DNA of 64,000 bases from Deltaproteobacteria bacterium (lineage in GTDB: Bacteria; Desulfobacterota; Desulfobacteria; Desulfobacterales; ETH-SRB1). The DNA lies in NCBI GenBank assembly GCA_030262895.1, contig JAJSZW010000001.1:16360-80359 (forward strand), written 5' to 3'. Positions 1-55,149 of this stretch are shown here, piece after piece. The first letter of the stretch is position 1. Every line of letters begins with the position of its first letter. A program made the translations under genes and the position numbers. The notes beneath the pieces were generated by a model. The model worked only from the letters and a program-made list of their open reading frames with translations, searched no databases and had not been told where the DNA came from.

Positions 1-23
1 ATCCATTCCCATCCTCCCAGTCC

Positions 24-1526
24 TTAAAAGCTTGCAGGGACTGCAAACTGAATTACAGACGAAATGATCTTTCCGCTAAAGATGCCGAGGAGAATAACTC
101 CTGCAGCCGTGATAACAATAGGAACAAGCATAGTAAGAGGAGCCTCGTCTCTTTGTATCTCCTCATGTTTTGTTTCCCCGCCATTAAGGGCATATGCCGG
201 CTCCATCGGTTTTAAATAAGCGCATTCGATAACCCTGAAAAACAGCACAGCATTTATCAAGCTGCTGCATAAGAGCGCTGCCGCCCATACCCACTGCCCG
301 GCTTCGATAGTCCCCAGGATGAGATACCACTTGCTGAAAAAGCCACATGCCGGCGGTATACCAACCATGGAAAGAGCGGTTATCGTAAATGCGGCCATAG
401 TAAACGGCATTTTCTTGTTCAGGTGACGCAACTGTTGTATTTCCCGCGTTCCTGTCTTATACAATATAGCACCCACAACCAAAAACAGGCACGCCATCAT
501 AACAGCGTCGTTCATGATGTGAAGGATAGCCCCGGTAAGTCCCATTCGATTCGCTACACTCACACCAATAACAATATACCCGACTTCCGCTACAACAACA
601 TAAACAAGCATCCTCTTGAGGTCTGTTTGAGCAAGCGCTTTAATTCCTCCCCAAAAAATAGCCATGACTGACAGCCATCCCAATATGGGCATTACCGGCA
701 CCATGTTTACAGAAAAATTGGGCTGGAATACGGTAAACAATAGCCTAATCATCACATATGCAGCCACTTTGGTCATCAAAGGGGCAATCAGCGCACTCAC
801 CGCAGAAGGTGCAGTACAGTAAGCATCCGGCAGCCATGTATGCAATGGAAAGAGCCCTGCCTTAATGGCTAAACCAACAGTAAAAAAGGCAAAGGCGACA
901 AGAATAACCTTGGAGTGATACAGGTCCGGCAGGATATTAGCCAGATCCGCCATATTAAGGGAGCCGGTTGCTATATAAAGGTATCCAATACCTAACAGGT
1001 AAAAACATGCACCGATGGTACCTATGATAATATAATTAAAGGTGGCCATAGGCGCCCCTTCCTCACCGATTGCTATTAAGGCATAGCAGGAAAGCGCAGA
1101 TATCTCCAGGAATACAAAAAGATTGAATACATCACCAGTGATAACAATACCCATGAGTCCGGTGACGAGGAGAAGGAAAAGTGTATAAAAAGGAACTGTT
1201 TTCTCAGGGAGATTATCTTCAATACTCTTTTTTGAATAAATGGCAACAATCAGACTGATAGACGATACAATGACCAGCACAAATGCGCTAAGATGGTCCA
1301 GCATATATTCTATCCCCCAAGGAGGTGCCCAGCCACCCAGACGATAGGAAAATTTGCCTGTCGTCATAACAGTATTCAGCACACTTAAAGAGGAGATAAG
1401 AGGTATGACAAGGACGGCGACAACCCATGGATAACAAAGTCTCTTTTTCCACCACCCAATCACCGGGACAAAGAGGGAAGCAATCAAAGGAACTACTATA
1501 ATCAGCGCTGCAAATTGATCTGCCAT
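24..1526 (-). CDS. mrpD: Mrp/Mnh-type cation:proton antiporter subunit D (NuoN/NuoM-like proton-conducting membrane subunit)
   Basis: 500-aa polytopic membrane ORF with MnhD/NuoN-like blocks (HTWLPDAY, LIAPLMTK). It is the last complete gene of a co-directional mrp-like cluster. Confidence 0.8.
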   Translation of the reverse strand: MADQFAALIIVVPLIASLFVPVIGWWKKRLCYPWVVAVLVIPLISSLSVLNTVMTTGKFSYRLGGWAPPWGIEYMLDHLSAFVLVIVSSISLIVAIYSKKSIEDNLPEKTVPFYTLFLLLVTGLMGIVITGDVFNLFVFLEISALSCYALIAIGEEGAPMATFNYIIIGTIGACFYLLGIGYLYIATGSLNMADLANILPDLYHSKVILVAFAFFTVGLAIKAGLFPLHTWLPDAYCTAPSAVSALIAPLMTKVAAYVMIRLLFTVFQPNFSVNMVPVMPILGWLSVMAIFWGGIKALAQTDLKRMLVYVVVAEVGYIVIGVSVANRMGLTGAILHIMNDAVMMACLFLVVGAILYKTGTREIQQLRHLNKKMPFTMAAFTITALSMVGIPPACGFFSKWYLILGTIEAGQWVWAAALLCSSLINAVLFFRVIECAYLKPMEPAYALNGGETKHEEIQRDEAPLTMLVPIVITAAGVILLGIFSGKIISSVIQFAVPASF

Positions 1527-1527
1527 T

Positions 1528-1917
1528 TTAGGCTCCTGTTTCCTTTCTGATCTTCAGGATCTCGTCTTCTTCTAACGTGTTATATTTTCTATAGATTAAA
1601 ATGAGTGAAGCAAGCGCAATGCCGGTTGTGGCTATAGACACCACAATAGCCGTAAGCATGAGTACGTGGGGCAATGGATTAATATAGTTGGCAACCTCGA
1701 TAGCTTCATGGCCGTGGCCATGCCCGGACAGTATCGGAACTGTCGCGCCTGCTTTCACACCTATAGAAACGTAAAAAAGGATTATCGCGGACTGGAATAT
1801 ATTCATTCCGATTAATTTCTTGACAAGATTTTTCTTGCCAATCATCGCATAAAGCCCGATCATCATCAGAATTATATATATCCAAAAGTTGTATTTGCTG
1901 ATTACGTAGTCGAGCAT
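1528..1917 (-). CDS. mrpC: Mrp/Mnh antiporter subunit C (NuoK-like)
   Basis: ORF track gives 1528..1935. I prefer the ATG at 1917, which has GGAGG 5 nt upstream and lies just after the upstream stop. Small 3-TM protein with a NuoK/MnhC-like sequence (LIGMNIFQSAIILFYVSIG). Confidence 0.75.
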   Translation of the reverse strand: MLDYVISKYNFWIYIILMMIGLYAMIGKKNLVKKLIGMNIFQSAIILFYVSIGVKAGATVPILSGHGHGHEAIEVANYINPLPHVLMLTAIVVSIATTGIALASLILIYRKYNTLEEDEILKIRKETGA

Positions 1918-1918
1918 A

Positions 1919-2203
1919 TCAGCCTCCTTCACCATTGCGCTTTTTTCTCAACATCAGAATGCAGCCAATCGCTGCCGTAAAGACTACTACGGTCTCACCC
2001 ATCGTGTCATAACTCCTGTAATCCGCAAGCACAGCAGTAACAATATTAGGGGTTGCCGTCTTTTCCGTGGCCTCCTGAATATACTGTGGTGAAACATGCG
2101 AACTGGCCGGAGAATTGGGATCACTCCACTTAGGCATGTCTTCAACGCCATATATGAGTAATGCGCCTGTCATAATGACTGCGATTAAAGCAATAACTTT
2201 CAA
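1919..2203 (-). CDS. MnhB-related small membrane subunit
   Basis: 94 aa. Carries the motif NIVTAVLADYRSYDTMGE, typical of MnhB/Mbh-type subunits. Start overlaps the upstream stop by 4 nt. Confidence 0.65.
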   Translation of the reverse strand: MKVIALIAVIMTGALLIYGVEDMPKWSDPNSPASSHVSPQYIQEATEKTATPNIVTAVLADYRSYDTMGETVVVFTAAIGCILMLRKKRNGEGG

Positions 2204-2445
2204 TCTTTTGACCTCCTTTTTGTTTTACTAACCGCTGCAATAAACAAGACTGTTCCGACTCCAGCGCCTACGGAAGCCTCGGTAAAGGCTACATCCACCG
2301 CCCCCATTTCCGTCCATAGGAGACACATAAAGAAACTGTAAGCGCCCAAAATAATAACAGCACCCAAAAGATCTTTTACATTAATAGCAGCAATCGCACA
2401 GATTATAATAAAAAGGCAGAGTATAAGATCAAGTTGCCAGATCAT
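2200..2445 (-). CDS. MbhD/DUF4040-like small membrane subunit of the Mrp complex
   Basis: ORF track gives 2200..2481. The ATG at 2445 forms an ATGA overlap with the mrpG stop. 81 aa, hydrophobic (LILCLFIIICAIAAINVKDLLGAVIILGAYSF). Confidence 0.6.
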   Translation of the reverse strand: MIWQLDLILCLFIIICAIAAINVKDLLGAVIILGAYSFFMCLLWTEMGAVDVAFTEASVGAGVGTVLFIAAVSKTKRRSKD

Positions 2446-2768
2446 TTGCTTCCCTCCCTGGTCCATGGTTTGACACCGCACCGAAAAGCAGCTCTTGAAA
2501 TGGCGTGGGTTGCAGTGGGATTAGCCAAAAAAACAAAAACAGCGACAACGACTATCTTTATACTGTCTAAAATAGCCCCGTGATATGCTGCATGATATAT
2601 AGAAAGGCCGACAAGCGCTATAAGCACCGCCAGTGTGTCGCCTTTCCCCGTGGCATGCATCCGGGAATAAAAATCCGGAAAACGCAGGAAGCCAATGGTC
2701 CCTGTGGCAAAAAAGAAACAACCCACTAAAATCAGGATCATAGATATTCCTTTTACAATTTCCATCAA
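2442..2768 (-). CDS. mrpG: Mrp/Mnh antiporter subunit G
   Basis: 108 aa with the MnhG signature GTIGFLRFPDFYSRMHATGKGDTLA. 4-nt overlap with mrpF. Confidence 0.8.
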   Translation of the reverse strand: MMEIVKGISMILILVGCFFFATGTIGFLRFPDFYSRMHATGKGDTLAVLIALVGLSIYHAAYHGAILDSIKIVVVAVFVFLANPTATHAISRAAFRCGVKPWTREGSK

Positions 2769-3031
2769 ATTTCACCTCTCCCTTCAAAGTACTTTGCTGC
2801 CGCTAATGACCCGATAAAATTCAAAATAGCGTAAACCATGATGATATCCAAAAACATCTCTATCCTGCCATAGATAAAACCCATCAGCACCAGAACCACC
2901 AATGTTTTTGTGCCGATCGCTCCGACTCCTACAATCCGGTCTATAATAGTCGGCCCGTACACTACCCGATAGAGACAAAGTAAAACAAGCAAACAAAGGA
3001 AAATACTCACGCCTAAATAAAAATTTTCCAT
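2765..3031 (-). CDS. mrpF: Mrp/Mnh antiporter subunit F
   Basis: 88 aa, MnhF-like (LYRVVYGPTIIDRIVGVGAIGTKT). GGAG lies upstream of the ATG. Confidence 0.8.
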   Translation of the reverse strand: MENFYLGVSIFLCLLVLLCLYRVVYGPTIIDRIVGVGAIGTKTLVVLVLMGFIYGRIEMFLDIIMVYAILNFIGSLAAAKYFEGRGEI

Positions 3032-3103
3032 CTCAATACTCCAAAATTAGTTGTTAAGCTGATTAGCTGATTAGCTTAACAGCTTATTAGCCAGCTTATT
3101 GCT

Positions 3104-4039
3104 TTAATTAACCGTTAAGTTGTATTTATTAAGCTTTGAATACAATGTGCTGCGGCTCACATTAAGTTGTTTTGCAACTTTTAATTTGTTCCAGTTGTTC
3201 TCCTGCAAAATTTTCATAAGGAATCTTTTCTCATTTTCCTCAAAAGAGGTTATCCCTTCATTTTTTTCTTTTAACACTTCATGTAAAATGCGGGAAGGCA
3301 GTAACTCACGCTCAACTTTTTCACCCTTTGCCAGTAGGAAAGCGTGTTGTATTGAGTTTTCCAACTCCTTGACATTGCCTGGCCAGGAATAGTCCATTAA
3401 TATCTGCATTGTATCGGATGTAACACCGCTAACATTTTTCCCTATTTCTAGATTCAGTATTTCTAAAAAGCATTCTATTAGAAGGGGGATATCATCTTTC
3501 CTCTGCCTTAAGGAAGGCAGGTGTATATTAATTACATTCAGCATATAAGAAAATTCTTCATTAAAAGTTCCTTTTTCGACCTCTTTCCCAAGATCAGTAT
3601 TAACAGCGGCAATAATCCTGACATCTGTCTTAATCCTTTTTTTTCCTCCAAGCCTTTTTATAGACCCTTCCTGTAAAAAATCCTGAAGTTTGATCTGTGT
3701 CAATGGAGGCATTTTATCAATCTCACTCAAAAACACTGTGCCGCCATTATTCCGCTCCAGACATCCTTTCTTTTGAGATACCGCCCCTTCAAAGGCGCCT
3801 GTTTCATGACCAAAAAGTCCGCTTTCAACTATAAACCTCGGATAAGCTGAGCAGTTATACACATCAAAAGGTTTGTCTTTTCTTGAGCTGTTCAAATGGA
3901 TACATCTTGCCACCAATGCTTTCTCAGTACCCTCTTCACCCTGAACCACAACCGAGGTATCAGTAGGAGCCAGATTCAATATCATATTGTAGATCTGCTG
4001 CATTCTGGCAGACTGTTTATTGATCTCCTGTATCTTCAA
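3104..4039 (-). CDS. Receiver-less sigma-54 enhancer-binding-protein paralog with degenerate ATPase motifs and a C-terminal Fis-type HTH
   Basis: 311 aa, clearly paralogous to the AAA+/HTH part of the 623-aa activator at 12407..14278. Walker A reads GEEGTEKA (canonical GESGTGKE), Walker B reads FLSEI (canonical FLDEI), GAFTGA reads GAFEGA, and YYRLNV reads SYMLNV. The start overlaps the mrpB stop by 4 nt. Confidence 0.8.
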   Translation of the reverse strand: MKIQEINKQSARMQQIYNMILNLAPTDTSVVVQGEEGTEKALVARCIHLNSSRKDKPFDVYNCSAYPRFIVESGLFGHETGAFEGAVSQKKGCLERNNGGTVFLSEIDKMPPLTQIKLQDFLQEGSIKRLGGKKRIKTDVRIIAAVNTDLGKEVEKGTFNEEFSYMLNVINIHLPSLRQRKDDIPLLIECFLEILNLEIGKNVSGVTSDTMQILMDYSWPGNVKELENSIQHAFLLAKGEKVERELLPSRILHEVLKEKNEGITSFEENEKRFLMKILQENNWNKLKVAKQLNVSRSTLYSKLNKYNLTVN

Positions 4040-4530
4040 GCTCGCTTCCCTTGAATATTCTTTTCTTTTGAAGGAAGTCCTCCGGTTGCTATGTCTAAAA
4101 AGATCGAAATCATCGCAGCCATAACAGTGACCCCGACACCGACCTCAACGCCCAGAATACCGAGCGATCTTGCCTGCGCAATCCCCACATGCAGAATCTG
4201 ATCAAGTTCTGCATAGTCTAAAAAGTTACCTCCAAGTATTAAACACAACACCCCTATTCCTGCATATATAAAGACTCCTGTGCTACATAGAATGGTATTC
4301 AATTTCTCGCTCATCTTCCTTAAAGCATTGTCCAATCCATAGGTAATGACCAATAAAATAATACTTGCCCCAAGAATCACTCCACCTTGAAATCCTCCTC
4401 CAGGGCTGTAATGTCCATGAGCGATAACATACAGAGCATAAATCTGCATAAAGGGTATCAGCAGCCTGGAAAGTGTCTTTACAATAACGTCATCTGATTG
4501 TTTAGTCATCATATCGTTTACCCCGGTCAT
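4036..4530 (-). CDS. mrpB: Mrp/Mnh antiporter subunit B
   Basis: 164 aa with the MnhB-domain block HGHYSPGGGFQGGVILGASIIL. Start is ambiguous (4530, 4512 or 4509). Confidence 0.75.
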   Translation of the reverse strand: MTGVNDMMTKQSDDVIVKTLSRLLIPFMQIYALYVIAHGHYSPGGGFQGGVILGASIILLVITYGLDNALRKMSEKLNTILCSTGVFIYAGIGVLCLILGGNFLDYAELDQILHVGIAQARSLGILGVEVGVGVTVMAAMISIFLDIATGGLPSKEKNIQGKRA

Positions 4531-4548
4531 TTCCTAAGTCTTTTTGTT

Positions 4549-5262
4549 TTACTTTAGTGCTACAAAAACAGGTGCCATATCGAGAGTATCCTGTACATAT
4601 ACATGGTCGGCTTCCATGAATATATGCGCAATCCTGTCCTCCATCTCACCGGTCAGAAGGTCTTCAGCGGTCTTTTTACTCACAGCATGCACGTAATAAA
4701 CCCCATCTCTGATATCCAGGGTAATAGTTCCAGGCGTGAGAGTGATCGAATTGGCAAGTGTGACCAGAGAAATATCGCTTTCCAGTTTTGTCTTAAATTC
4801 TATTATCTTTGGATCTATCAGATTTTTTGGCCCCAAGGCTAATCTGGCAACATGCATGTTGGACAAAACGATCTGGTAGAGAAGCCATGGAATATAAGTA
4901 ATAAATCTTTTTACTATTACACGCATATCTCCTGCTCTTGGATTGGCAAAAAGAAGATCATGCGTTGCATGCGAAACCAGACCGCAACAAAGAATTCCGA
5001 TGCTGATATGAAATAAATCATAGTGCCCCGACAAGAGCAGCCAGCAACCAAACAAAATGATGAATGTTGCTGTAAATCTGGTAATCTCGGTCTTTGTTTG
5101 CCTGGCGCCTTTAAATATTGCCTCCACTCTTTTTCTTTGGACGGACTGGGCTTCTGAGGTTAATCGAGCAGCAATGTCCAAAACATCCTTGCTCCTCTCT
5201 CTTGCTTTCTCTAATATCTCAAAGGACTCATCCGTGGCCTGGACTAATATAGTTACTTCCAT
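4549..5262 (-). CDS. mrpE: Mrp/Mnh antiporter subunit E (with N-terminal extension)
   Basis: The C-terminal half is MnhE-like (LSNMHVARLALGP...SLVTLANSITLTPGTITLDI). The ORF-track start at 5316 lies inside repeat B3. The ATG at 5262 has GAGGA 5 nt upstream and is preferred. Confidence 0.7.
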   Translation of the reverse strand: MEVTILVQATDESFEILEKARERSKDVLDIAARLTSEAQSVQRKRVEAIFKGARQTKTEITRFTATFIILFGCWLLLSGHYDLFHISIGILCCGLVSHATHDLLFANPRAGDMRVIVKRFITYIPWLLYQIVLSNMHVARLALGPKNLIDPKIIEFKTKLESDISLVTLANSITLTPGTITLDIRDGVYYVHAVSKKTAEDLLTGEMEDRIAHIFMEADHVYVQDTLDMAPVFVALK

Positions 5263-5287
5263 TCCGTTCCTCTTCTTTCTAAATAGA

Positions 5288-5424
5288 GCCTGAACGAAAA
5301 CTGCTAATTTTTCCAATTTCTGCGCCAGGCTTAAATTTTAATCCTCAAAATACTCAATGTATTCCTGCGGTTAAAATTTGCGCCTTCCTTGAACTTGAAA
5401 AAATTTTCTAGTTTTCGTTCGGGC
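5288..5424 (-). repeat. B-family nested-palindrome element, copy B3 (inverted relative to B1/B2)
   Basis: The reverse complement matches the ~70-nt core of B1/B2 (gttcaaggaaggcg.aaatttta...ggaatacattgagtatt..gagg.ttaaaattt). It has its own terminal inverted repeat, cctgaacgaaaact / agttttcgttcggg. Confidence 0.8.
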
Positions 5425-5487
5425 ACTAAATGTGGCCTTATTTTCCTGCGTTCACACAAAAAATACGTTTTCCGAATTCAAAACGTT

Positions 5488-6288
5488 TTATCTAAAAGGA
5501 ACCAGCAATGCAGGAACAGGGGTTCTCTCTACTACGTTGCACGAAGATTTTCCTACTAGAATATCTTTAAAGCTTTGCCCCGACGTTGTCCCCATAACTA
5601 TTGATGTAGAATTATAATCTTGCGCTGCAAGAATAATCTCATCAACAGTTTTGCCTGCATATACATGATATTCTGCGTCAATTCCCTCTTTTATGCATTT
5701 GTTGCGCGTTTCTCTTAATTTTTCCATAAGCTGTCTCAGATCACGCACAGTCAATTTCTTGTGTATTACATTTACAATATCAAGCTCGTTGATTAATTGC
5801 TTAAAACCAAGTATAATCTGAAGCGCTTTTTCAGATGCCTGGGACCAATCGGTCGCAAACAAAACACGCTCAAATGCCCCTTTTGAAGTAAGCTTCAATC
5901 CTGTTTCATCTTTGTCAACTATCAGAACAGGCACGCTTGCCTCCTTAATAAGCTTTTTAACAATAGGATCGCCAAACAAAATTCTTCTTTTCTTTTTATC
6001 AAAATGAACCACGGCGAATGATATCTGATTTTCATGGATTGTACTCAAAACACAACTGGGCAAATCTCCAGAGTCAAATCTTATAGAAGCTTTCAAGCCA
6101 TAGCTGTTTAATTTTTCTTTCCATTGCTCAAACAGCTCAAGAGCTGCATCATTCTTGTCTTTTTCTTCATCTATTACACAAAGGAAAATTATTTCCTTGA
6201 AGCCAATATCGCTAAAACCTGACAATCCTTCCAGCACCTTGGAACTTGGGCGCCTAAGATCTGTAGCATATAATATTTTTCCGGCCAT
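5488..6288 (-). CDS. Tandem universal stress protein (two UspA domains)
   Basis: 266 aa with two Usp-like halves (YATDL..., FATDWS...IVMGTTSGQS). GGGGAGA Shine-Dalgarno upstream. Confidence 0.8.
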   Translation of the reverse strand: MAGKILYATDLRRPSSKVLEGLSGFSDIGFKEIIFLCVIDEEKDKNDAALELFEQWKEKLNSYGLKASIRFDSGDLPSCVLSTIHENQISFAVVHFDKKKRRILFGDPIVKKLIKEASVPVLIVDKDETGLKLTSKGAFERVLFATDWSQASEKALQIILGFKQLINELDIVNVIHKKLTVRDLRQLMEKLRETRNKCIKEGIDAEYHVYAGKTVDEIILAAQDYNSTSIVMGTTSGQSFKDILVGKSSCNVVERTPVPALLVPFR

Positions 6289-6353
6289 TATCTCCCCTTT
6301 TTAATAGATATCAATCTTATTCTAGCCTTAAAAAACTAAATTTTATTTTGTTA

Positions 6354-6370
6354 AAGCAACTTTCGTGCCT
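6354..6370 (-). promoter_or_regulatory. Candidate sigma-54 (-24/-12) promoter for the USP gene at 5488..6288
   Basis: The minus strand reads aGGCACGaaagTTGCTt, matching TGGCACG-N4-TTGCW with correct GG/GC spacing. It lies ~66 nt upstream of the ATG at 6288. Confidence 0.6.
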
Positions 6371-6880
6371 TTATGATGCAAAATGTATGTCTGATCCTGT
6401 TTTTTCAGGTGTTACCAGAATTTGAAGCTGCAGGCATGAATAATATCATCAACACAAAGTGACCAAATTTTGGACATATAATAGTAATTTTTCAGAAACA
6501 TCTTTATATCTTTGAATAATATTATGTAGGATTTTTGTACACATTTTGCCTAAAAACTGTACAACAATATTTTCCCATCTCTTTGAGCTTTAATACGCTT
6601 GTAAAAAAGGCCTTTTTTACAAGTAGTTGCGGATTTAGGACTTACAAATCATTAACGACTTGATAAAATTGGAAAAACCGCAATTTTTATACTTTTTTAC
6701 GAGATCATCAGTTTTAAAAAAGCTCAAGCGTGAACGCCTTCTTAACGCTCTTAATTGTGCTTAATAAACACTTGACAATTTAACAATTATCTGTTTAATT
6801 AATATTAAAAAAATTATAATTTAAAGATGAGGACTGATGTGCTCAGTTGACTGAAAAACTGTGATTAAGGAGGATATTCT

Positions 6881-7747
6881 ATGAATCTTAAAAAAATGCT
6901 GTTTGTGACCAATTTTGATAAATTGTGGTTTGACGCCCTGGAATCACTGATGGATCTCAGAAAATCAGGCCTTAATCATGTAGTTTTTCTCCATGTAATA
7001 GAAAAAGATAAAGTCGCAATGCGTCGTGGAAAAGGCTACCTCAAAGAGGAAGAGGTCGGTCTCAAACAAATGGCGGATGTGCGTTTTATAGATTGGGCCG
7101 AAAGCATATTTGAAAAAGGAATGGAATGCGGCGCCTATGTTGTAGTTGGTAATTATATCCCCAAGATTCTCTCAACGGCTGAAACAGAAAAAGCGGATCT
7201 CATAGTGATAGAATCCCATGAGAGGACAAAAGTAGAAAAACTGTACGTGGATTCAACGGTACTGGAACTCCTCCGGCGAGCCAAGACTCCTGTATTAGTG
7301 CATAAATATATGCTGCCATCGGGAAAGACCAACGAAAAGCCTTTTGAGGTACCCCTCTTTGCAACAGACTGGTCTTCTCCATGTGAAAGAGCATTGGAGC
7401 AGATTATCGACGTTAAAAACAGTGTTAAAAAAGTAGTAGTGGTTCATGTTGTCAGTGAGGATTCTATGAAGGGAAAATCTAAACATGACCTTCAAGTGCT
7501 TCAAAAAGAGAATAAGAAAAGGCTGGAAGATGTCCGTATTACTTTTGAAGACGAAGGAATAGAAACTGAGACTCATCTGTATATGGGAGAAGTTGTTCCG
7601 CAAATTGAAAACGCCTCGCGTGAACATGGCGCCACAATGATCATTACAGGCTCAACAGGGAAAGGAGCATGGCGAGAGCGATGGCTGGGAAGTATTTCTC
7701 AGCAATTGGCGGAATCATCGGAACTTCCCACGCTGTTAATACCTTAA
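6881..7747 (+). CDS. Tandem universal stress protein (two UspA domains)
   Basis: 288 aa with two Usp-like halves (FATDWS, IITGSTGKG). AAGGAGG Shine-Dalgarno upstream. Confidence 0.8.
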   Translation: MNLKKMLFVTNFDKLWFDALESLMDLRKSGLNHVVFLHVIEKDKVAMRRGKGYLKEEEVGLKQMADVRFIDWAESIFEKGMECGAYVVVGNYIPKILSTAETEKADLIVIESHERTKVEKLYVDSTVLELLRRAKTPVLVHKYMLPSGKTNEKPFEVPLFATDWSSPCERALEQIIDVKNSVKKVVVVHVVSEDSMKGKSKHDLQVLQKENKKRLEDVRITFEDEGIETETHLYMGEVVPQIENASREHGATMIITGSTGKGAWRERWLGSISQQLAESSELPTLLIP

Positions 7748-7804
7748 AACCCGGTCGAGTTGTTAAATAGTGGAGTAGTCGAGTCATTATTAAAAATTAA
7801 AAAA

Positions 7805-7831
7805 GGCGGATAAGCAATTATCCGCCTTTTT
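7805..7831 (+). terminator. Rho-independent terminator after the USP gene
   Basis: Stem ggcggataa / ttatccgcc (9 bp, 4-nt loop) followed by ttttt. Confidence 0.7.
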
Positions 7832-7837
7832 AATTTC

Positions 7838-8000
7838 AACCTAAGTTGAGCGATTTTTTGCGAAGAAATGTGCCGAGATCTTAATGCAGCTAGGTTTGCG
7901 AAAAGCGTAGGCATACCAATGGATATGTCGAGACTTTTCGCAAGTCCTTGATGCGCAAGAGATTGGTGCAGGTCGAGTAAAAAATTGCTCAATTTAGGTT
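7838..8000 (+). repeat. C-family nested-palindrome element, copy C1
   Basis: 22-nt terminal inverted repeat aacctaagttgagcgatttttt / aaaaaattgctcaatttaggtt (20/22). Inner repeat ttgcgaaaag / cttttcgcaa flanks the core cgtaggcataccaatggatatgtcgag. Confidence 0.75.
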
Positions 8001-8043
8001 CAATTCAGGCTGTTAAGTTTCCAGTTGGTTGCCTTGATCTTTT

Positions 8044-8207
8044 GTAACTACTCAGGTTGATAGGCTGAAGGCTGAAGACTGTTAGGAAAAAGCGCATTTT
8101 GAAGCCATGTTTGGTGCAAGAATCAGATGTTTCCGCTAAAGTACGGCAATCGTGCTCTTCTGACCCCTTCAGCCTTCAGCCTGACTACGTGACTACGTGA
8201 GTAGTTA
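8044..8207 (+). repeat. A-family MITE-like element, copy A1
   Basis: Termini gtaactactcagg...cgtgagtagtta. Arms ggctgaaggctgaag / cttcagccttcagcc. About 90% identical to the reverse complement of 56413..56584. The right end covers the stop codon of the receiver gene. Confidence 0.85.
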
Positions 8208-8597
8208 AGACAAAAGTTTCTTTATCATTGCCCCCAATTCTTCGGGCTCGACCGGTTTTTCAAGATAGGCTTCCGGTTCCGGCACCGGTTGATCTCCAAA
8301 CTCGTCAAGGGCCTTCTGAGAGCGGAGAAAGGTTCTTTTGGCTATTCCGGAAAGCACGATTACCGGAATGTCACTAAATTGAGAATCCGTTTTTAATGCA
8401 CGATACATCTTGATACCGCTTTCCTTAGGCATTAATATATCCAGGATAATTAAAGCCGGTTTTTCCTCTTTGACCTTACCCATACCCTCTTCGCCGTCTT
8501 TTGCAATCTCCGGCTTATAGCCACTGTCTTCCACAACGCTTGAAGAAAATGTTCTCACATCAACGTCATCATCAACAATCAGCACCTTTTTCGCCAT
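8205..8597 (-). CDS. Single-domain response regulator (CheY-like receiver)
   Basis: 130 aa. Carries VLIVDDDVDV, ILDILMPKESG and a conserved K region. Confidence 0.85.
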   Translation of the reverse strand: MAKKVLIVDDDVDVRTFSSSVVEDSGYKPEIAKDGEEGMGKVKEEKPALIILDILMPKESGIKMYRALKTDSQFSDIPVIVLSGIAKRTFLRSQKALDEFGDQPVPEPEAYLEKPVEPEELGAMIKKLLS

Positions 8598-8643
8598 AAT
8601 GAATTCCTCCTTTTAGTATAATTTTGTAAAAATCATTTTTGCC

Positions 8644-10272
8644 CTAAACCTTCTTTCCCTGAAGCCGGATGGTAAATGTTGTTCCCTTGCCGAGTCGGGA
8701 TACTACATCCATGGTTCCGCCGTGCTCATTTACAATCTTTTGTGTAACCAGTAACCCGAGGCCGGTACCTCGCGTTCCTTTTGTACTAAAAAATTCGGCA
8801 AAAAGCTTGCTTTGAGTTTCCTCGCCCATACCACAACCATTGTCTATAACTTCGAATTCCACGCCGCTCTTGTTCTCACGTCGTGTCCTTACTTTTACAT
8901 ACCACTGTTTTTGCGTATCAAGATCAAAAACACAGGCATCTATTGCATTTGAAACCAGATTAAGAAGACAACTATGTATTCCTTTTGGGTCAAGATATAT
9001 CTCACCCATCTCCCTGTCAATATCCCTGATCAGGTCGATATCATATTCCTTTGCCTTTGATTCCATAAGATCGCAGACTTCATCTGCTATAATATTCGGA
9101 TTATATATTTCATATTCAGGTTCTCGTTCTTTAGAATAAGTGAGAAGATCCAGAACAAGATCGGAAACTTTATGTATATTTCTTTCCACCATCTCCCAGC
9201 CGGTTTTCAATTTTTTTTGCTGGCGTTCCCTTTCAGTGTTTATATCTATAATTCGCTTCAGAGATCGTGCTTGAAGAGGCGCGGTAAACATATTGCTATA
9301 GTCTATTTTATTTTCCGCCGCCCAGTCAGCCGCTCCCTTTTTAAGAGCGGTATTTACTATGTAAAGACCGCCTTTCAAGCCATTTAAGATGTTTTTGACG
9401 CCATGAGCAAGACCGGCTACGGTCTGCCCTATAGCTGCCAGTCTTTCAGATTTAATCAGTTCTTTTTCCAGGCGTTTAATTTTTCTAAGATCCTGGAAAA
9501 AGCCGACACTTCCTATTGGCTTGTCGCCTTCATACAGCATTGCGCACGAAAATCTTACAGGCACTGCTTCGCCGCTCTTTGCTGAAACAAATGCTTCATC
9601 TCCAACAAAAATATCGCTTGCATTCCGATCTTTACCTGCAAAAACATCAGAGATTTTTTGAGATATCCCTTCAGGGTAAAAATTGCCGGCATTCATGGCA
9701 CTTTTGGCTTCATTCACAGTATATCCAAACATCTCTTCCGCAGCAGGATTAAATATTATTATATTCTCTTCTTTATCCGTGGCAACAATCCCATCGATCG
9801 AACGCTGTACAAGCTTATCCTCAAACTCATATCTTCTCTTGATCTCTTCGGTTTTTTCCTTTACCATATTCCAAAGATCATTGGCATAGTTATTCAATGT
9901 CTTTTTTGTTTTCAGCCGTTCCTCAGCCCTTTCTAAGGCAATTGAAAGGAGTTGATCGCTCACCGGCTTGGTTATAAAATCAGATGCTCCAAGATGAAGC
10001 GATTGTATGGCGGATTCCATATCACCATGTCCGGTAATAACAATTACCTCTACCTCAGGGTTAATCTCCTTGATTCTTCTCAAGACTTCTATTCCATCCA
10101 TCCCGGGCATCTTTATATCGGTAAGCACTATTGGAAAGAATTCTTTTTGAAACAAGTCAATTCCCTGCTGTCCGCTCGCTGCAGTTGCTACATCATATCC
10201 ATCACTTTTAAGAGATATGCTGAAGACTTTTCTAATGCCCTCTTCGTCATCGATCAGTAAAAGTTTTGACAT
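8644..10272 (-). CDS. Hybrid sensor histidine kinase (receiver-PAS-HisKA-HATPase)
   Basis: N-terminal receiver (LLLIDDEEG, TDIKMPGMDG), PAS region, H-box LAHGVKN, ATPase boxes NAIDA, DNGCGM and GTGLGL. ORF-track start is 10293; the ATG at 10272 (MSKLLLIDD) is preferred. Confidence 0.8.
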   Translation of the reverse strand: MSKLLLIDDEEGIRKVFSISLKSDGYDVATAASGQQGIDLFQKEFFPIVLTDIKMPGMDGIEVLRRIKEINPEVEVIVITGHGDMESAIQSLHLGASDFITKPVSDQLLSIALERAEERLKTKKTLNNYANDLWNMVKEKTEEIKRRYEFEDKLVQRSIDGIVATDKEENIIIFNPAAEEMFGYTVNEAKSAMNAGNFYPEGISQKISDVFAGKDRNASDIFVGDEAFVSAKSGEAVPVRFSCAMLYEGDKPIGSVGFFQDLRKIKRLEKELIKSERLAAIGQTVAGLAHGVKNILNGLKGGLYIVNTALKKGAADWAAENKIDYSNMFTAPLQARSLKRIIDINTERERQQKKLKTGWEMVERNIHKVSDLVLDLLTYSKEREPEYEIYNPNIIADEVCDLMESKAKEYDIDLIRDIDREMGEIYLDPKGIHSCLLNLVSNAIDACVFDLDTQKQWYVKVRTRRENKSGVEFEVIDNGCGMGEETQSKLFAEFFSTKGTRGTGLGLLVTQKIVNEHGGTMDVVSRLGKGTTFTIRLQGKKV

Positions 10273-10290
10273 ATAATTTCTGTTACCTCT

Positions 10291-10357
10291 CACAGTTGGC
10301 AGTTAACGGTTTCTCAAAACATAAAACCGTGAACTGTAAACCGACAACCGTGAACTG
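10291..10357. repeat. GTGAACCG-word hairpin element (copy a)
   Basis: cacagttggcagttaacggtt - loop - aaccgtgaactgtaaaccgacaaccgtgaactg. It fills the gap between two kinase genes. The right arm is nearly identical to the one at 38706..38731. Confidence 0.7.
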
Positions 10358-12397
10358 CTATTCTGAAATAGCGGGAAATGTCATTTTAAAGGAAGTCCCC
10401 ACATTTTCTTTACTTTCAACAGTGATCTCTCCCCCATAGTCTTTAACAATCTCATAACTTATAGACAACCCAAGTCCTGTTCCAGCGCCGATTTTTTTGG
10501 TTGTAAGAAATGGTTCAAAGATCTTGTCAATAATATCAGCCGGTATCCCCTTTCCGTTATCTGAAACTATTGCTACAACTTGTTTGTCTTCCGCAAAAGT
10601 CCTGACCTTTATAATTTTTTTCCAGGTTTTTCCTCTTTCCTCCAAAGCATCACGCGCATTAGTAATCAGATTAATAAATACCTGCTCCAGTCTGTTATGA
10701 TCCGCCAGTATTGGAGGAAGATTTTCAGCAAGATCCAACTCTATATCTATCTGATGAAGAATTAATTGCTGATTTAATACCTTGAAGACATCGGCAATCG
10801 GTTTATTGATATTAACCTCGGATCGTGTAGCGTCAGATGGTCTTGCAAATTCTCTCATATGATTGATTATCTCACTCGCCCGGTCAACATACCTGCTCAT
10901 CTCTTCTGCCATGGTACGAAATGTCTCTTTATCTATACTTTCACCTCTGCCTATCATCTTTATAAAAAAATCACTCCCCACCTTAATGACATTGAGCGGC
11001 TGATTCAACTCATGAGCAATGCCGGAAGCCATAGTGCCAAGTGCCGACATCTTGCCGGCCTGAATTAATTGAGCTTCTTTTTCAACGCTTTCAGTAACAT
11101 CAGAAGTCGTTATAATCAGCACATTTTGCTTCATATATTCTGCAGGACGTACATGAATGTTGACATAAAAAAATCCATTATCTTTCCTGCAATGCTGCCT
11201 TTTTAAATAAAGGAGAGTCTTGCCCTTTTTAATTGAAGCAAAATCATCAATTATATCTTTGTATGCTATGTTTGAAAGATCAAAAAAGGACTTTTGCAGA
11301 AATTCTTCTCGTGAATAGCCATAATAGCCTTGAGCTGTCTCATTTACATCCAGGATGGCAAATGTCCCGCCGTCGACAATAAAAATCGGATTCGGATCAG
11401 CATTGAACAGATCCCGGTATTTTTTTTCAGAAATTATCAATTCCATTTCAAATTGATTGAGACTGAAAAGCATGTGTTTAAATGAATCGGCCAGACGCGT
11501 TATTTCATCTCCGGAGTATTTTTTATAAATTTCGCACTTAATACACCCCTCAAGCTTTTCCGGAAACTTTTCTGAATGCTTTGACCGACAGAGAGTATTC
11601 TGCACAAACCAGCACGGCATGTCTGTCCCGCCATATGCAGGACACTCTGTTTTGTTACAATCCGATTCTTCCCAACACTTAATAGTTTTGCCGAATTGGA
11701 TTATGGATTTTCCGTGACTGGCCAGGTTTGCCATGGAGGTAAGCCTGGAAATAGGACGTGTAATATAATGCGAAAGCCACAGAGTCAGAAAAAACCCCGC
11801 AGCTCCAATAAGAATCAGGGTAACTACAATTTCACGGTTTCTAAGCGCTATAATTCTTTTTTCTGTTGGTAACCAGCTAATCCCCACAGACAATACACCC
11901 AGCATATTTTTTTCTGTTCCGTGACACTCATTGCAAGCTTTTTCATTTTTGATGGGCATAGCATAGCTGATAACTTTTTCTTTCCCATAGTATTCAAAGC
12001 CATTAACCAGGCTTTTGCTTTGCAAACTCCTTTTAGTAATTTCAGAATTAATTGAACTGCCGATAAGGTCGGCATTGCCGGCATGCTTTATAATTCCGTT
12101 CCAATCACAAAGAATGATTCTATGTAACTCTTCAGCTTCATTCAAGTCTTCTAATATTTTCTGAACATATTCCATCTCACCGTCGAGCATCGGATATTCA
12201 ATGCTTCGCATAACAATATTGCTGACCTTAAGCGCCCTGCTCTCTTGCTCCACAGTATAAAACTTTATCTGCCTTATTGTCTGGTAATAAGTAAAAAAGC
12301 CCATTACGCTACACAAAATCAGGGAGAACCCCAATATTATTTTATTTCTCAGGTTATTGCGAACAAGATTTGAGATAAAGGCTATTTTAAATGGCAT
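10358..12397 (-). CDS. Sensor histidine kinase with a periplasmic CXXCH (heme c) motif, a cytoplasmic Cys-rich module and PAS
   Basis: 679 aa. Two TM segments bracket a ~160-aa loop containing ACNECHG. After TM2 comes [30 protein letters not shown]...CIKC. Then PAS, H-box [11 protein letters not shown] and ATPase boxes [24 protein letters not shown]. Confidence 0.85.
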
Positions 12398-12406
12398 TGT
12401 TAAATA

Positions 12407-14278
12407 CTATTTACTCGAATGAATATTATACTTTTTTAGCTTTGCATAGAGAGTGCTGCGGCTGATGTTCAGTTTTTTTGCAACCTGCAATTTATTCCAT
12501 TTATACTCCTCCAGCACTCTGGCAAGAAACTTTTTTTCGTTATCTTGAAAGGAGCTTATTTTTTGCTCTTTGTTTACAATAGAGTATATATCAAGCGGAA
12601 GGCTTTGTCCGCTGATAAATTCATTTTTGGTAAGAATAAATGCATGTTCAATAATATTTTCCAATTCCCTTACATTCCCGGGCCAATTGTAACGCATCAA
12701 TGTGTCCATAGCTTCCGAAGAAATTCCTTTTACCTTTTTATTCCCTCGCAAGTTCAGCCTTTTTAAAAAATGTTCAACTATAAGCGATATATCATTTCGT
12801 CTCACCCGAAGGGGAGGAATATTTATTGGAATAACATTCAAACGATAATATAGGTCCTCCCGGAAGTTCCCATTTTCCACCTCTTTTTTTAAATCCTTGT
12901 TGGTAGCCGCTATTACTCTGATATCCACCTCAATAGTTTCTATACCCCCCGATCTTTCAAACTTTTGAAATTGAAGAAATCTGAGGAGTTTAACCTGTGA
13001 CATCAGAGGAATTTCTCCAATTTCATCCAAAAAAAGAGTTCCCTTGTCTGCTAATTCAAATCGTCCGAGCTTCCGATGGGTTGCGCCGGTAAATGCTCCT
13101 TTCTCATGGCCGAACAACTCGCTTTCAAGTAGTGTCTGTGGATAGGCGGAACAATTCACAACAATAAAAGGATTGTCTTTTCGATAACTATGCAAATGAA
13201 CGGCTCTTGCTACAAGCTCTTTCCCGGAACCGCTCTCTCCCTGAATCAGCACGGTTGCATCGGTAGGAGCTATATCCAAAATCAACTTATAGAGCTGCTG
13301 CATTTTATGATCTTTTCCGACAATACCTCCATAGCCTGAAAACATTTTGACCTTATTCTCCAGCTCCTTCATTTTTTCGTTGTTCAGGGCAATTCTTCTT
13401 ATAATGCCCGCAACCTGTGAAAGCATAAGATAGAGAAAGCGTAAATCTTTTCCGGAAAAAACAATATGCTCAGGGGCAAGCAAAATTACCACCCCAATAA
13501 CCTCATCTTCCTTAATTATCGGAACAAGGGAGATCGAGCCATAGCCGTCAAAGCTTTCCAACCAGGGATATCCACTATCTCTAAGTTCATCAATATTCAT
13601 GGGATGACGCATCAATGCAATATTCGAAATAAGGCCTTCTCTATCTTCAATACTCAGTTCTCTGTACCCATTAACCTTAACAAATCCTTTTTTCTCTTTA
13701 TTAAGAATAAGTGGGGCAATCTCTTCAAAAGAGAGTATATTTTTGGTTTGGTTGATTATAAAATCAAACGCCTCTCCAAGGGATTTCTTTTCACTGGTCC
13801 TGCGGGTTATATCGCAAAGAGATTCCATTTCCTTGTACGATTTTTCAAGTTCTCCGGTCTTTTCTTTTACAGCTTTTTCAAGATTGTAGGTATAATTTTT
13901 GAGTCTTTTTTTGATTTTCAATTTCTCTTCAGCGCGTTTTAATGCAACTGAAAGGGCTTCTTTACTGATAGGTTTTGTAATAAAATCAGATGCATCAAGC
14001 TGTAATGATTTTACAGCAAGCTTCATATCACCATCGCCTGTTATTACAATAACCTCTGTCTCCGGATTTATCTCTTTGATCCTTCTTAAAACACCTATAC
14101 CATCCGTTCCCGGCATTTTTATATCCGTCAAAACAATAGAAGGGGCTTCTTTTTCAAAAAGCTCAATTCCGCGCTTTCCGTTTTTCGCTGTTATAACATC
14201 ATAACCCTCACTTCTAAGCGATATGCTCAGCAGTTTTCTGATGCCCGCTTCATCATCTATTAACAAGATTTTTAACAT
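12407..14278 (-). CDS. Sigma-54-dependent response regulator (receiver-GAF-AAA+-HTH)
   Basis: 623 aa. Receiver ([19 protein letters not shown]), a central GAF-like region, intact [14 protein letters not shown] and FLDEIGE motifs, and a C-terminal HTH ([13 protein letters not shown]). Confidence 0.9.
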
Positions 14279-14295
14279 AACAATTCTTTATATTT

Positions 14296-14462
14296 TGAGA
14301 CCGTTGAAAAATGATCAGTTTTGTTACAGTTCAAGGAAGGCGAAAATTTTAAACGTAGTAATACATTGAGTATTTCGAGGCTTAAAATTTGAGCCTGACA
14401 CCGACACTTTAGTGAAGCTTTAGCGCTAATTGGACAAAAGGGGGCGTTTTGCAAAGGTCTCA
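14296..14462 (+). repeat. B-family nested-palindrome element, copy B1
   Basis: Terminal repeat tgagaccgttgaaaa / ttttgcaaaggtctca. About 88% identical to B2 (51076..51217) apart from a ~24-nt insertion. It starts 18 nt from the activator ATG at 14278. Confidence 0.85.
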
Positions 14463-14747
14463 TTTCAGGTTGTGCATCACTTCGATGTAATTCAAAATAG
14501 TTTGCTTTCGAAAATTAGAAATAATTTAAAAATAATAGGACAATATTTAGTGCATTGTCAATATAATAAGTGTTTAAGTGTTTAATTGAGCGCTGATTTT
14601 TGCCTTCTGTTTTGTTTACAAAAAACGGTTATCATGATATAAGTAAAATTTATATGATTTGTGAATCAATTCATAAGTATCTATAAATGTAAAGAATCCA
14701 GGTCAAGAAGACGTTTTTCTCTGACATATAAATATAGGGTGGAAAAA

Positions 14748-23302: not shown

Positions 23303-23313
23303 CTTGCATAGCT

Positions 23314-23478
23314 CCTTAGGGTTCGCTCAAAAATAAATTTACATTTTCAGGTGTTGAGGCGCTCGCATGGCAAGACGCAAGGAGGGCGAATAGCGAGCTA
23401 TTTAACCGACGAGCAACGTAGCCATGCGGGATGGATCGGCGCATCAAAATGTGAAGTTATTTTTGAGCGAGCCCTTAG
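23314..23478 (+). repeat. D-family nested-palindrome element, copy D1
   Basis: Terminal inverted repeat ccttagggttcgctcaaaaataa / ttatttttgagcgagcccttag. The core caaggagggcgaatagcgagctatttaaccgacgagcaacgtagccatgcggg is related to the reverse complement of 58332..58492. Confidence 0.8.
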
Positions 23479-23498
23479 TTCAGGGTTCAAGGTTTTAT

Positions 23499-25733: not shown

Positions 25734-25765
25734 AATAATTTTGGAAAGAATTCTCGGACAGGCTC

Positions 25766-26329
25766 CTAGTAGATGAAATCTGTTGTATGCCAATCGGTTT
25801 TAAAGTCCTTTAGTGAAACATAATGCAGATAAAAAGGAAGGGTAAGTTTGCCACGCTCGGCTTTAGCTCTAATTTGATATTTCCCGCCTTTTTTTAGTTT
25901 GGCAAGCGGAACAATTTTTAAGCTATCAACTTGTGTCATCAACTTCTGAGCCTCTTCGAAAGATTTTGTTACAAAATGTTCTCCACTTTCTGATGAACGC
26001 GTTATAATAAATTCTTTTTTTAAATTATCATATTTAATTGTATGAGTTGTAGTTATGTCGGCTATTTTATTATCAAACCAAAAATTCTTAACTTGATAAA
26101 GACTAGTAAAAAACGTAAAAGTTGCTGGCACTCCGTTTAAGATAGCTTTTTTCGTGTCATCTCTAAAAGCCCCCTCAATATTTAAATAAAGAAGAAGATG
26201 GTCGCGTGTATTTGTTACTGTCATGTTGGCTATTCTTGCATTCTGATCCTGAGCAAAAGCCAAATTTTGCAACATGAAAATTATAGCAAAGAAAATAATC
26301 CAAGTTTTTCGATTAATTAATGTAATCAT
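25766..26329 (-). CDS. Secreted DUF4390-like protein (commonly precedes ntrY)
   Basis: 187 aa with a signal-peptide-like N-terminus. The position directly upstream of an NtrY/NtrX pair is typical for this family. The assignment rests on context and general sequence character only. Confidence 0.5.
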   Translation of the reverse strand: MITLINRKTWIIFFAIIFMLQNLAFAQDQNARIANMTVTNTRDHLLLYLNIEGAFRDDTKKAILNGVPATFTFFTSLYQVKNFWFDNKIADITTTHTIKYDNLKKEFIITRSSESGEHFVTKSFEEAQKLMTQVDSLKIVPLAKLKKGGKYQIRAKAERGKLTLPFYLHYVSLKDFKTDWHTTDFIY

Positions 26330-51075: not shown

Positions 51076-51217
51076 GAGACCTTTGAAAAATGTTCAATTT
51101 TGTTCAAGTTCAAGGAAGGCGAAAATTTTAAATGTAGGAATACATTGAGTATTTCGAGGCTTAAAATTTGAGACTGACGCTGAAATTGGGCAAAAGGGGG
51201 CGTATTGCAAAGGTTTC
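51076..51217 (+). repeat. B-family nested-palindrome element, copy B2
   Basis: gagacctttgaaaaatg...gttcaaggaaggcgaaaattttaaatgtaggaatacattgagtatttcgaggcttaaaatttgag...cgtattgcaaaggtttc. Ends 14 nt before the dsrM ATG. Confidence 0.85.
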
Positions 51218-55143: not shown

Positions 55144-55149
55144 TGTGAG

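Follow-up and report, generated by a model that had tools for sequence, protein, structure and literature searches.

In the 64,000-nucleotide stretch of contig JAJSZW010000001.1 analysed here (the window), from a Deltaproteobacteria bacterium assigned to the Desulfobacterales, a cluster of Mrp antiporter genes contains a gene (3104..4039, minus strand) for a degenerate copy of a sigma-54 activator, or bacterial enhancer-binding protein (bEBP). Judged by its sequence, the 311-residue (aa) product is clearly a homologue of this family, and it is best described as a pseudo-ATPase derivative of it and not as an activator. We propose, with slightly better than even confidence, that this dead paralogue is a negative-feedback anti-activator, acting by competition for the enhancer and/or by poisoning mixed rings with the intact activator encoded nearby. 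The comparative case is solid, whereas the sign of the effect and the mechanism are what we infer from it.

A bEBP fold without its catalytic residues

The two paralogues are as follows.

3104..4039, minus strand: receiver-less, catalytically degenerate sigma-54-activator paralogue; 311 aa, TTG start, AAA+ domain, lid and Fis-type helix-turn-helix (HTH)
12407..14278, minus strand: intact paralogue, a receiver-GAF-AAA+-HTH sigma-54 activator; 623 aa, canonical motifs

Pfam assigns Sigma54_activat (PF00158) to residues 7-173 of the 311-aa protein (E 1.4e-53, with the full profile covered), AAA_lid_14 to residues 178-259 (E 1.2e-23) and HTH_8 to residues 266-306 (E 1.3e-11). It finds no domain N-terminal to the AAA+ domain, the receiver and other regulatory domains being absent, and neither a membrane-binding feature nor an additional domain. 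An earlier reading of the letters of the window alone (the sequence-only reading) had described a receiver-less paralogue aligned with the AAA+/HTH part of the intact activator, and BLASTP against the C-terminal half of the latter agrees, with 54% identity over 297 aa (E 3e-113). The AlphaFold2 (AF2) model, of mean predicted local distance difference test score (pLDDT) 83.5, has ZraR and NtrC1 as its top Foldseek matches and superposes on the AAA+ domains of ZraR, NtrC1, FlrC, LuxO and FleQ with TM scores of 0.7-0.9, and the best sequence match among solved structures is likewise ZraR (1ojl, E 9e-71). This superposition and the ZraR match indicate that the AAA+ fold is intact and that the protein lacks only the chemistry. 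It reaches the cut-off of no NCBIfam model, and therefore falls in no named subfamily.

In bEBPs, the Walker A and Walker B motifs, the arginine fingers and sensor II are required for ATP binding and hydrolysis, and the threonine of GAFTGA is required to engage sigma-54. In the 311-aa protein, Walker A reads GEEGTEKA against GESGSGKE in the intact paralogue and departs from the pattern GxxGxGK(E), Walker B reads VFLSEI against LFLDEI and departs from hhhhDE, and the L1 loop reads GAFEGA against GAFTGA, so that the sigma-54-contact Thr is lost. The arginine-finger segment, FNEEFSYMLNV, departs from FRxDLYYRL with both arginine fingers replaced, the second by the change from YYRLNV in the intact paralogue to SYMLNV. 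All four replacements quoted in the sequence-only reading are present, and to them can be added two arginine losses that it had not listed, namely the first Arg of FREDL, which has become Asn (FNEEF), and the sensor-II Arg, which has become Lys (WPGNVKELEN). Walker A still has its Lys and Walker B its Glu. The AAA+ fold with its lid and the C-terminal Fis-type HTH place the protein among the bEBPs, while five sequence features of a functional activator are lacking; its ATPase activity is predicted to be lost.

Conservation and descent of the degenerate family

The degenerate protein is not an isolated case. A search of 5.8 billion proteins returned ~96 receiver-less homologues of 49-99% identity and 294-383 aa (a few partial ones are shorter), canonical bEBPs appearing only below ~51% identity to the 311-aa protein. 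The homologues all come from metagenome-assembled genomes of uncultured Thermodesulfobacteriota, labelled as Desulfobacterales, Deltaproteobacteria, Thermodesulfobacteriota, Desulfovibrionales or Candidatus Desulfofervidaceae, with a few evidently mis-binned. A scan of genome contigs with the family alignment gave, among the matches listed, only generic bEBPs (best 51% identity, canonical Walker A), and is uninformative because the back-translated patterns are too general. A profile search of 1.84 billion representatives yielded, among its best 150 matches, P0084 as the only degenerate protein; it adds no diversity because the family collapses to about one 50% cluster.

Glu replaces the Gly before the Walker A Lys (GExGTEK) in every homologue that covers the region, a position held by Gly in 99% of 93 canonical bEBPs, and Lys replaces the sensor-II Arg in all full-length homologues but three. 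In a column-by-column comparison with these canonical proteins, 85 columns reach 85% conservation or more in the canonical set; the family retains 59 of them, has kept 13 partly and has lost 13. The lost columns include the Walker A Gly, the GAFTGA Thr, the Walker B Asp/Glu, the sensor I Thr/Asn, R160/D162/R166 and the sensor-II Arg, and likewise R120, F94 and V169; the differences that define the family are G39E, R224K, E231Q and A288V. The Walker B Asp is retained in only 19% of the family sample and the GAFTGA Thr in 0%, the loop being deleted altogether in some members, and the HTH core WNK..VAK.L..SRSTLY.KL.KY is invariant or nearly so. Beyond these common changes, the losses differ from one subclade to another, in Walker B (FLSEI/VLTEI, FLDRI or FLN[DE]I), in the L1 loop (GAF[ED]GA, GAFNGA, or scrambled or deleted in a third subclade) and in the arginine finger (SYML, YYQL or YYRL), a pattern to be expected if constraint on catalytic positions was relaxed once an inactivation in the founder had made them useless.

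The gene itself is under purifying selection, with a ratio of non-synonymous to synonymous substitution rates (dN/dS) of 0.17, 0.15, 0.16, 0.10 and 0.10 in five pairwise comparisons, within the range of MnhB, MrpF and MrpD and lower than that of the Usp (universal stress protein) gene. The protein thus has the attributes of a pseudoenzyme: homology to active enzymes, swapped catalytic residues, conservation of the replacements and purifying selection. The degenerate proteins are monophyletic in 200/200 neighbour-joining bootstraps, also after removal of all motif columns, and they group with the co-located intact activators in 178/200 bootstraps (167/200 without the motif columns). On the most economical history, the activator of the locus would have been duplicated long ago, and one copy would then have lost its N-terminal domains and its catalytic function. 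The sequence-only reading had taken canonical motifs in orthologues as the sign of a recent decay; the degenerate motifs recur instead throughout the family under a dN/dS of 0.10-0.17, and on these alignments the motif loss is old and maintained.

Two readings that would make the protein either more or less than a pseudo-ATPase can be weighed against these data, and taken jointly they are highly improbable. A still-active sigma-54 activator would agree with the database, which annotates all family members as an ordinary sigma-54 activator ('sigma-54 dependent transcriptional regulator') or as 'HydG', and with the Lys and Glu kept in the Walker motifs of the window protein. However, the protein has replacements in six separate elements of catalysis or sigma-54 contact, and the bEBPs that have been tested could not do without the GAFTGA Thr and an intact Walker A (PMC3105312). 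A decaying pseudogene is effectively excluded by the intact open reading frames (ORFs) in the ~96 homologues, by the dN/dS values and by the conservation of the replacement residues. It follows that ~100 database entries are probably misannotated as activators.

Association with Mrp genes in three gene orders

The Mrp genes around the degenerate gene are the following, with their Pfam assignments.

4549..5262, minus strand: MnhE (MrpE) gene (PF01899)
4036..4530, minus strand: gene for an MnhB-domain Mrp subunit (PF04039, E 2.4e-29); its TGA overlaps the TTG of the degenerate gene
2765..3031, minus strand: MrpF (MrpF_PhaF) gene (PF04066)
2442..2768, minus strand: MnhG gene (Pfam)
2200..2481, minus strand: MbhD gene (Pfam)
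1919..2203, minus strand: MbhE gene (Pfam)
1528..1935, minus strand: NuoK-like MnhC gene (Pfam)
24..1526, minus strand: gene for the first MrpD-like antiporter subunit (Pfam)

The order in the window, all on the minus strand, is therefore MnhE, MnhB, degenerate gene, MrpF, MnhG, MbhD, MbhE, MnhC, MrpD-like. The Mrp/Mbh-type membrane module visible there spans 24..3031, and L001 has two more Proton_antipo_M genes downstream. Alignment of the orthologous intergenic regions places the MnhE start at a conserved ATG (MEVT...) at 5262, and not at the TTG at 5316 that is listed mechanically. As the sequence-only reading had noted, the degenerate gene of the window shares four nucleotides with the gene before it: at the junction gcTTGAag, the TTG start (4039) and the TGA stop of the MnhB-domain gene lie within the same TTGA, and a Shine-Dalgarno sequence, AAGGGAAG, lies 5 nt 5' of the start.

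Nine loci spanning the diversity of the family were compared, namely the window, L091, L092, L003/L004, L007, L090, L005/L006, L088 and L089. Usp genes, the degenerate gene and an Mrp/Mbh-type cluster occur together in 9/9, and an intact sigma-54 activator, a sensor kinase, a receiver-PAS-kinase hybrid and a single receiver were seen in at least seven. The first of three gene orders, MnhE-MnhB-[dead]-MrpF, is that of the window, L091, L092, L003/L004, L007 and L090; the second, [dead]-small ORF-Usp-MnhE-MnhB-MrpF, is found in L005/L006; and the third, of the Desulfofervidaceae type, runs Usp-Usp-[dead]-MnhE-MrpF-MnhG-MbhD-MbhE-MnhB in L088 and L089. Since the degenerate gene is linked to Mrp genes in all three, the association has survived rearrangements. 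What is not conserved across the family is the slot between MnhB and MrpF and the start/stop overlap. The embedding between mrpB and mrpF proposed by the sequence-only reading therefore stands for the loci of the first order, and gives way in L005, L088 and L089 to a position at the head of the Mrp genes or just upstream of them. The translational coupling that it had proposed finds support in window relatives with an overlap (TTGA retained in L091, ATGA in L090), but does not extend to L092, L003 and L007, where a gap of ~35-60 nt separates the MnhB gene from the degenerate gene. The start codon of the latter is TTG in 6/9 loci, GTG in 1/9 and ATG in 2/9.

This linkage could also be read in another way, in that Mrp membrane subunits would hold and release the protein and so couple antiporter assembly or activity to transcription, a role that could coexist with the anti-activator function proposed here. 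Its co-location with Mrp in three gene orders and the overlap of its start with MnhB in some loci would suit such a reporter of Mrp status, and the sequestration of a bEBP by an integral membrane protein has a precedent in RedR2-BtdS (PMC10084136). Nevertheless, we consider this very unlikely, as the 311-aa protein shows no membrane-binding feature and no additional domain, and RedR2 is held through an N-terminal domain that is absent here.

Some further observations concern the Mrp genes themselves. MnhB lies between MnhE and MrpF in window-type clusters (4036-4530 in the window) and in its usual position after MbhE in Desulfofervidaceae-type clusters (L088 12673-13125, L089 12678-13142), so the Mrp operon appears to have been rearranged around the regulator gene. 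In L003 (15810-16897) and L092 (17596-20903) an Rnf cluster (RseC/RnfF-like, Rnf-Nqr subunits, FMN_bind) lies directly downstream of Mrp on the opposite strand. This adjacency fits the Rnf-Mrp pairing that a genome comparison has reported for Seep-SRB1 and Hot-Seep1, partners of methane-oxidising archaea that carry both Mrp and Rnf, where the two have been placed in sodium/proton energy conservation (PMC10553843). Among distant activator homologues, L093 and L094 were examined, and neither showed the module in clean form with the dead paralogue missing. The activator homologue of L094 (47%) stands in an unrelated context, and L093 (16016-20654), with an intact activator 55% identical, is a disrupted copy of the module in which a BrnT/CopG toxin-antitoxin pair and an IS66 transposase come after a shortened Usp-MnhE region. 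AGCT-rich direct repeats (AGCTAATC AGCTAATC AGCT... at 3053-3097) lie in the 72 bp that separate the degenerate gene from mrpF, and were found only in the closest relatives (L001, partly L091); a sigma-54 promoter considered in this gap (TGGC, AGCT repeats) was rejected for its wrong spacing and for its conservation in the closest relatives only.

A sigma-54 promoter and three palindromes upstream of the operon

The regulatory region and the genes on either side of it comprise the following features.

5488..6288, minus strand: tandem Usp gene (ORF), first gene 3' of the sigma-54 promoter; orthologues carry PF00582 in all loci
6370..6355, minus strand: sigma-54 (-24/-12) promoter AGGCACGAAAGTTGCT, 66 nt 5' of the Usp ATG
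6460..6476, no strand: promoter-proximal enhancer-like palindrome TGACCAAATTTTGGACA, ~105 bp 5' of the promoter
6525..6541, no strand: enhancer-like palindrome 2, TGTAGGATTTTTGTACA, 65 bp from the proximal site, as in orthologous loci
6547..6563, no strand: enhancer-like palindrome 3, TGCCTAAAAACTGTACA, 22 bp from palindrome 2
6881..7747, plus strand: divergent Usp gene, which shares the regulatory intergenic region and is conserved in L003, L007, L091 and L092
8205..8597, minus strand: single-domain receiver gene (ORF)
8644..10293, minus strand: receiver-PAS-HATPase hybrid gene (ORF)
10358..12397, minus strand: sensor histidine kinase gene (ORF), part of the row of signalling genes at 8205..12397

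The promoter AGGCACGAAAGTTGCT is the sole site in the window with at most one mismatch to TGGCAC-N5-TTGCW, and it has the GG at -24 and the GC at -12. Equivalent sites lie 5' of the operon in L091, L092, L003, L007 (a weaker match), L088 and L090, and in L005 a sigma-54 site lies directly 5' of the aligned TTG start of the degenerate gene, within the annotated N-terminal extension. In a generic promoter/terminator scan of 2900..6900, sigma-70 sites were not above the shuffled expectation. The palindromes share the 17-bp motif TGTMY-N7-RKACA, from which each window copy departs at one position, and their layout is fixed in five window-type loci: two copies 21-22 bp apart, then 64-67 bp to a third, then 101-118 bp to the promoter. 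L092 is an exception, with one copy instead of the distal pair, and the other loci have similar clusters with a different spacing.

The HTH cores of dead and intact paralogues are near-identical (for example in the L005 pair), and Val288, present in 1% of other bEBPs, is common to both. These two features suggest that both paralogues would recognise the same palindromes, which are accordingly taken here as putative binding sites for each. The product of 12407..14278 is presumed to be the activator of the Usp-Mrp operon, and the same series of signalling genes accompanies it in L003, L005, L007, L090, L091 and L092. The link of the degenerate gene to the nearby two-component system, which the sequence-only reading had suggested, is thus strengthened by the synteny in nine loci, by the sigma-54 promoter with its three palindromes and by the near-identity of the HTH cores.

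The palindromes bear on a further alternative, in which the protein would be a transcription factor independent of sigma-54, its HTH (with the AAA+ domain for oligomerisation) repressing or activating other promoters. The loss of the sigma-54 contact loop together with an invariant HTH would be expected of such a factor, and bEBP-like regulators without sigma-54 exist (Caulobacter NtrC, PexR and VpsR, structures of the last being among the matches in the PDB). In addition, L088 and L089 have extra palindromes directly before the ribosome-binding site of the gene itself. However, its HTH nearly matches the one in the co-located sigma-54 activator, clustered sites were found only in the enhancer before the sigma-54 promoter, and the strict linkage to one operon argues against a wider regulon. 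Most of the known examples (TyrR, NtrC, VpsR, PexR) moreover keep their nucleotide-binding residues, which also counts against this explanation, and we regard it as unlikely.

Several other elements were seen in this region and in its counterparts. The two additional palindromes of L088 (9951-9988) and L089 (9952-9989) are 21 bp apart and lie inside the operon, directly 5' of the ribosome-binding site of the degenerate gene, and a conserved palindrome copy lies inside the MnhE gene (L088 11426, L089 11437); the in-operon copies could serve autoregulation or act as a roadblock. In the window, the divergent Usp-Usp intergenic region contains, 5' of the three enhancer-like sites, a perfect 13+13 palindrome (CTTGTAAAAAAGG/CCTTTTTTACAAG, 6598-6623). 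In the subclade P0070-P0076, the database gene models are extended at the N terminus by 40-70 aa, a stretch that includes the sigma-54 promoter TGGCACAAAAGTTGCT (L005 8001-8120), and the true start of the L005 gene (P0070) is probably the TTG at ~8124, with GAGAGG before it.

A proposed negative feedback by the dead paralogue

We hypothesise the following sequence of events. An ancient activator duplicate would have lost its receiver, its GAF domain and the residues for ATP binding, ATP hydrolysis and sigma-54 contact, and kept the AAA+ fold, the lid and the HTH. The adjacent kinases would switch on the intact activator, which would bind the three palindromic sites and fire the sigma-54 promoter of the Usp-Mrp operon, and this same promoter would drive the Usp genes, the Mrp genes and the dead activator copy. 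Being presumably transcribed with the operon and having a near-identical HTH core, the dead paralogue would accumulate with operon expression and return to the same enhancer, where it would displace activator dimers and/or join mixed rings that are unable to fire. Since both arginine fingers are lacking in the window's clade, a dead subunit that enters a ring there would put its neighbour's ATP site out of action as well as its own. The outcome would be negative feedback on antiporter expression, or a ceiling to it. The scheme is conjectural on four points: the proteins would have to bind the palindromes, they would have to form hetero-oligomers, the degenerate gene would have to be co-transcribed with the Usp gene, and the effect would have to be negative.

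The negative sign is favoured by what is known of mixed rings in HrpR/HrpS and RedR1/RedR2. In the HrpR/HrpS hetero-hexamer, substitution of Walker A or of the GAFTGA Thr in either partner abolishes activation (PMC3105312), and RedR proteins in an inactive form silence their active partner by preferentially forming hetero-oligomers with it (PMC10084136). The opposite sign has to be considered as well, the dead paralogue co-assembling with the intact activator as a scaffold that is needed for activation or enhances it, in a positive feedback. It would be consistent with the AAA+ fold and most non-catalytic conserved positions being kept under purifying selection, with the arginine finger kept in the subclade P0077-P0096, with three palindromes that could seat three dimers, hence one hexamer, and with the existence of co-activating pairs of bEBP paralogues, HrpR/HrpS (PMC3105312) and VnfA1/VnfA3 (PMC9542535). 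On the other hand, HrpRS needs an intact Walker A and the GAFTGA Thr in both subunits, and both are gone in every member of the degenerate family, some of which have the GAFTGA loop deleted; the inactive RedR forms, in turn, poison their partner and do not help it (PMC10084136). A constructive partner is improbable on this balance.

Several points weigh against the anti-activator that we prefer. The second arginine finger kept by P0077-P0096 (YYRLSI) would suit a partly constructive role in mixed rings. The AAA+ domain is conserved although it would be dispensable under simple enhancer competition; poisoning of rings would explain its retention. The enrichment of exact palindromes in family loci (8.9/100 kb against 0.58/100 kb in 80 unrelated bEBP loci), and of clusters of at least three within 150 bp (7 in 214 kb of family loci against 0 in 1.2 Mb of unrelated bEBP loci), is partly circular, the motif having been derived from the same loci in which it was counted, and the unrelated loci may differ in base composition; the conserved positions and spacings of the palindromes are the stronger argument. 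A regulator made inside an operon of abundant membrane proteins is unusual, for which the weak TTG start, conserved in 6/9 loci, may compensate. Lastly, read-through from the sigma-54 promoter past Usp into the Mrp genes has to be assumed, because a hairpin and an inserted repeat intervene.

The hairpin in question is A/T-rich (ACGTTTT / AAAACGT), is followed by ATTTTTTG and lies at 5457..5489 on the minus strand, directly after the Usp stop codon, as it also does in L091. It could act as a partial terminator and so set the ratio of Usp to Mrp expression; the generic terminator scan left it uncalled because its stem has too few G-C pairs. The repeat is a palindromic intergenic element of ~95-147 bp with copies in the window at 5279-5425 (147 bp), 14320-14397 and 51096-51189, and with others in L092 (18074-18167), L093 (17838-17922) and L003 (5627-5700). 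The copy in the Usp-MnhE spacer is flanked by ATTTAG and is absent from the orthologous spacer of L091. The element folds into a long hairpin (-52.2 kcal/mol, z = -7.5), has no Rfam match and looks like a repetitive extragenic palindrome or miniature inverted-repeat transposable element (REP/MITE type) of these genomes. The Rfam search, which covered 1..16000, gave no match of any kind. TGGCGCAGAAATTGGA at 5312..5327, considered as a second sigma-54 promoter before MnhE, was rejected as a conserved promoter, as it lies inside the copy of the repeat that L091 lacks.

Relation to known systems

Among the closest analogues of the 311-aa protein are PspF and the singly acting bEBPs of the HrpS type, which likewise consist of a minimal AAA+ domain and an HTH, without an N-terminal regulatory domain, in ~300-330 aa; PspF is also among the sequence matches to solved structures. 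It differs in being a fully active ATPase controlled in trans by PspA, with the canonical Walker A and B, GAFTGA and arginine fingers that the 311-aa protein has lost. HrpR and HrpS of Pseudomonas syringae offer the parallel of co-located receiver-less paralogues that arose by duplication and form a mixed ring on one sigma-54 promoter, and their authors speak of 'partial paralogue degeneration' (PMC3105312). Neither Hrp protein has lost Walker A or the GAFTGA Thr, and activation depends on the two together, whereas here one partner is wholly degenerate and encoded in the target operon, and the other is a full response regulator. In RedR1/RedR2 of Aromatoleum anaerobium, as with ATPase-dead or truncated bEBPs made in the laboratory, an inactive form blocks its active partner through hetero-oligomers (PMC10084136); the two RedR proteins are nevertheless both catalytically competent and switch between states, and neither is a dedicated, permanently dead paralogue.

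TyrR, the NtrC proteins of R. capsulatus and Caulobacter, VpsR and PexR resemble the degenerate protein in having a bEBP fold in which GAFTGA is lost or altered, and in binding DNA without remodelling sigma-54. Regulators of this type generally retain their nucleotide-binding motifs and N-terminal regulatory domains and act at sigma-70 promoters, and we know of none described as the dead copy of a co-located sigma-54 activator whose enhancer it shares. NifL, PspA, HrpV and FleN hold a bEBP in check, which is the role proposed here for the dead paralogue, and PspA is encoded in the operon that it regulates. All four differ from it in having unrelated folds and in binding the AAA+ domain from outside, and none is a bEBP paralogue.

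The negative regulators known for sigma-54 activators, which are textbook AAA+ motors, are unrelated to them. A literature search turned up no account of a conserved dead bEBP paralogue, nor of a regulator encoded within Mrp operons. If the proposal holds, it would show that bacteria apply to enhancer-dependent transcription the logic of a pseudoenzyme that poisons its active sibling, and would provide a natural setting in which to ask how many subunits of a bEBP ring must be live. In its most specific form, the proposal is of a dedicated dominant-negative AAA+ subunit, derived from a paralogue and transcribed from the very sigma-54 promoter that it shuts down by entering the ring or occupying the enhancer, and killing two ATP sites per subunit; this form is tentative, and we give it somewhat less than an even chance. 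Such a subunit would represent a new class of bEBP control, distinct from anti-activators of the NifL/PspA/HrpV/FleN type, and a circuit by which a costly ion-pumping complex would limit its own expression in syntrophic sulfate reducers. The analysis also defines a compact regulon in uncultured Thermodesulfobacteriota, composed of kinases, activator, three palindromes, sigma-54 promoter and Usp-Mrp genes.

Other observations on signalling genes and the host

The sensor kinase (10358-12397) has, between its N-terminal sensor part and its PAS domain, a cysteine-rich insert (residues 241-294) that is a candidate metal- or redox-sensing site. The row of signalling genes is interrupted in L092 by a small multihaem cytochrome gene. 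Elsewhere in the window, a second pair of kinase and sigma-54 activator, canonical and NtrY/NtrX-like, is found at 21956-25793. The DsrMKJOP-like genes at 51231-56337, for a nitrate-reductase-gamma-like subunit, a 4Fe-4S protein and an NrfD-like subunit, are consistent with a sulfate-reducing host.

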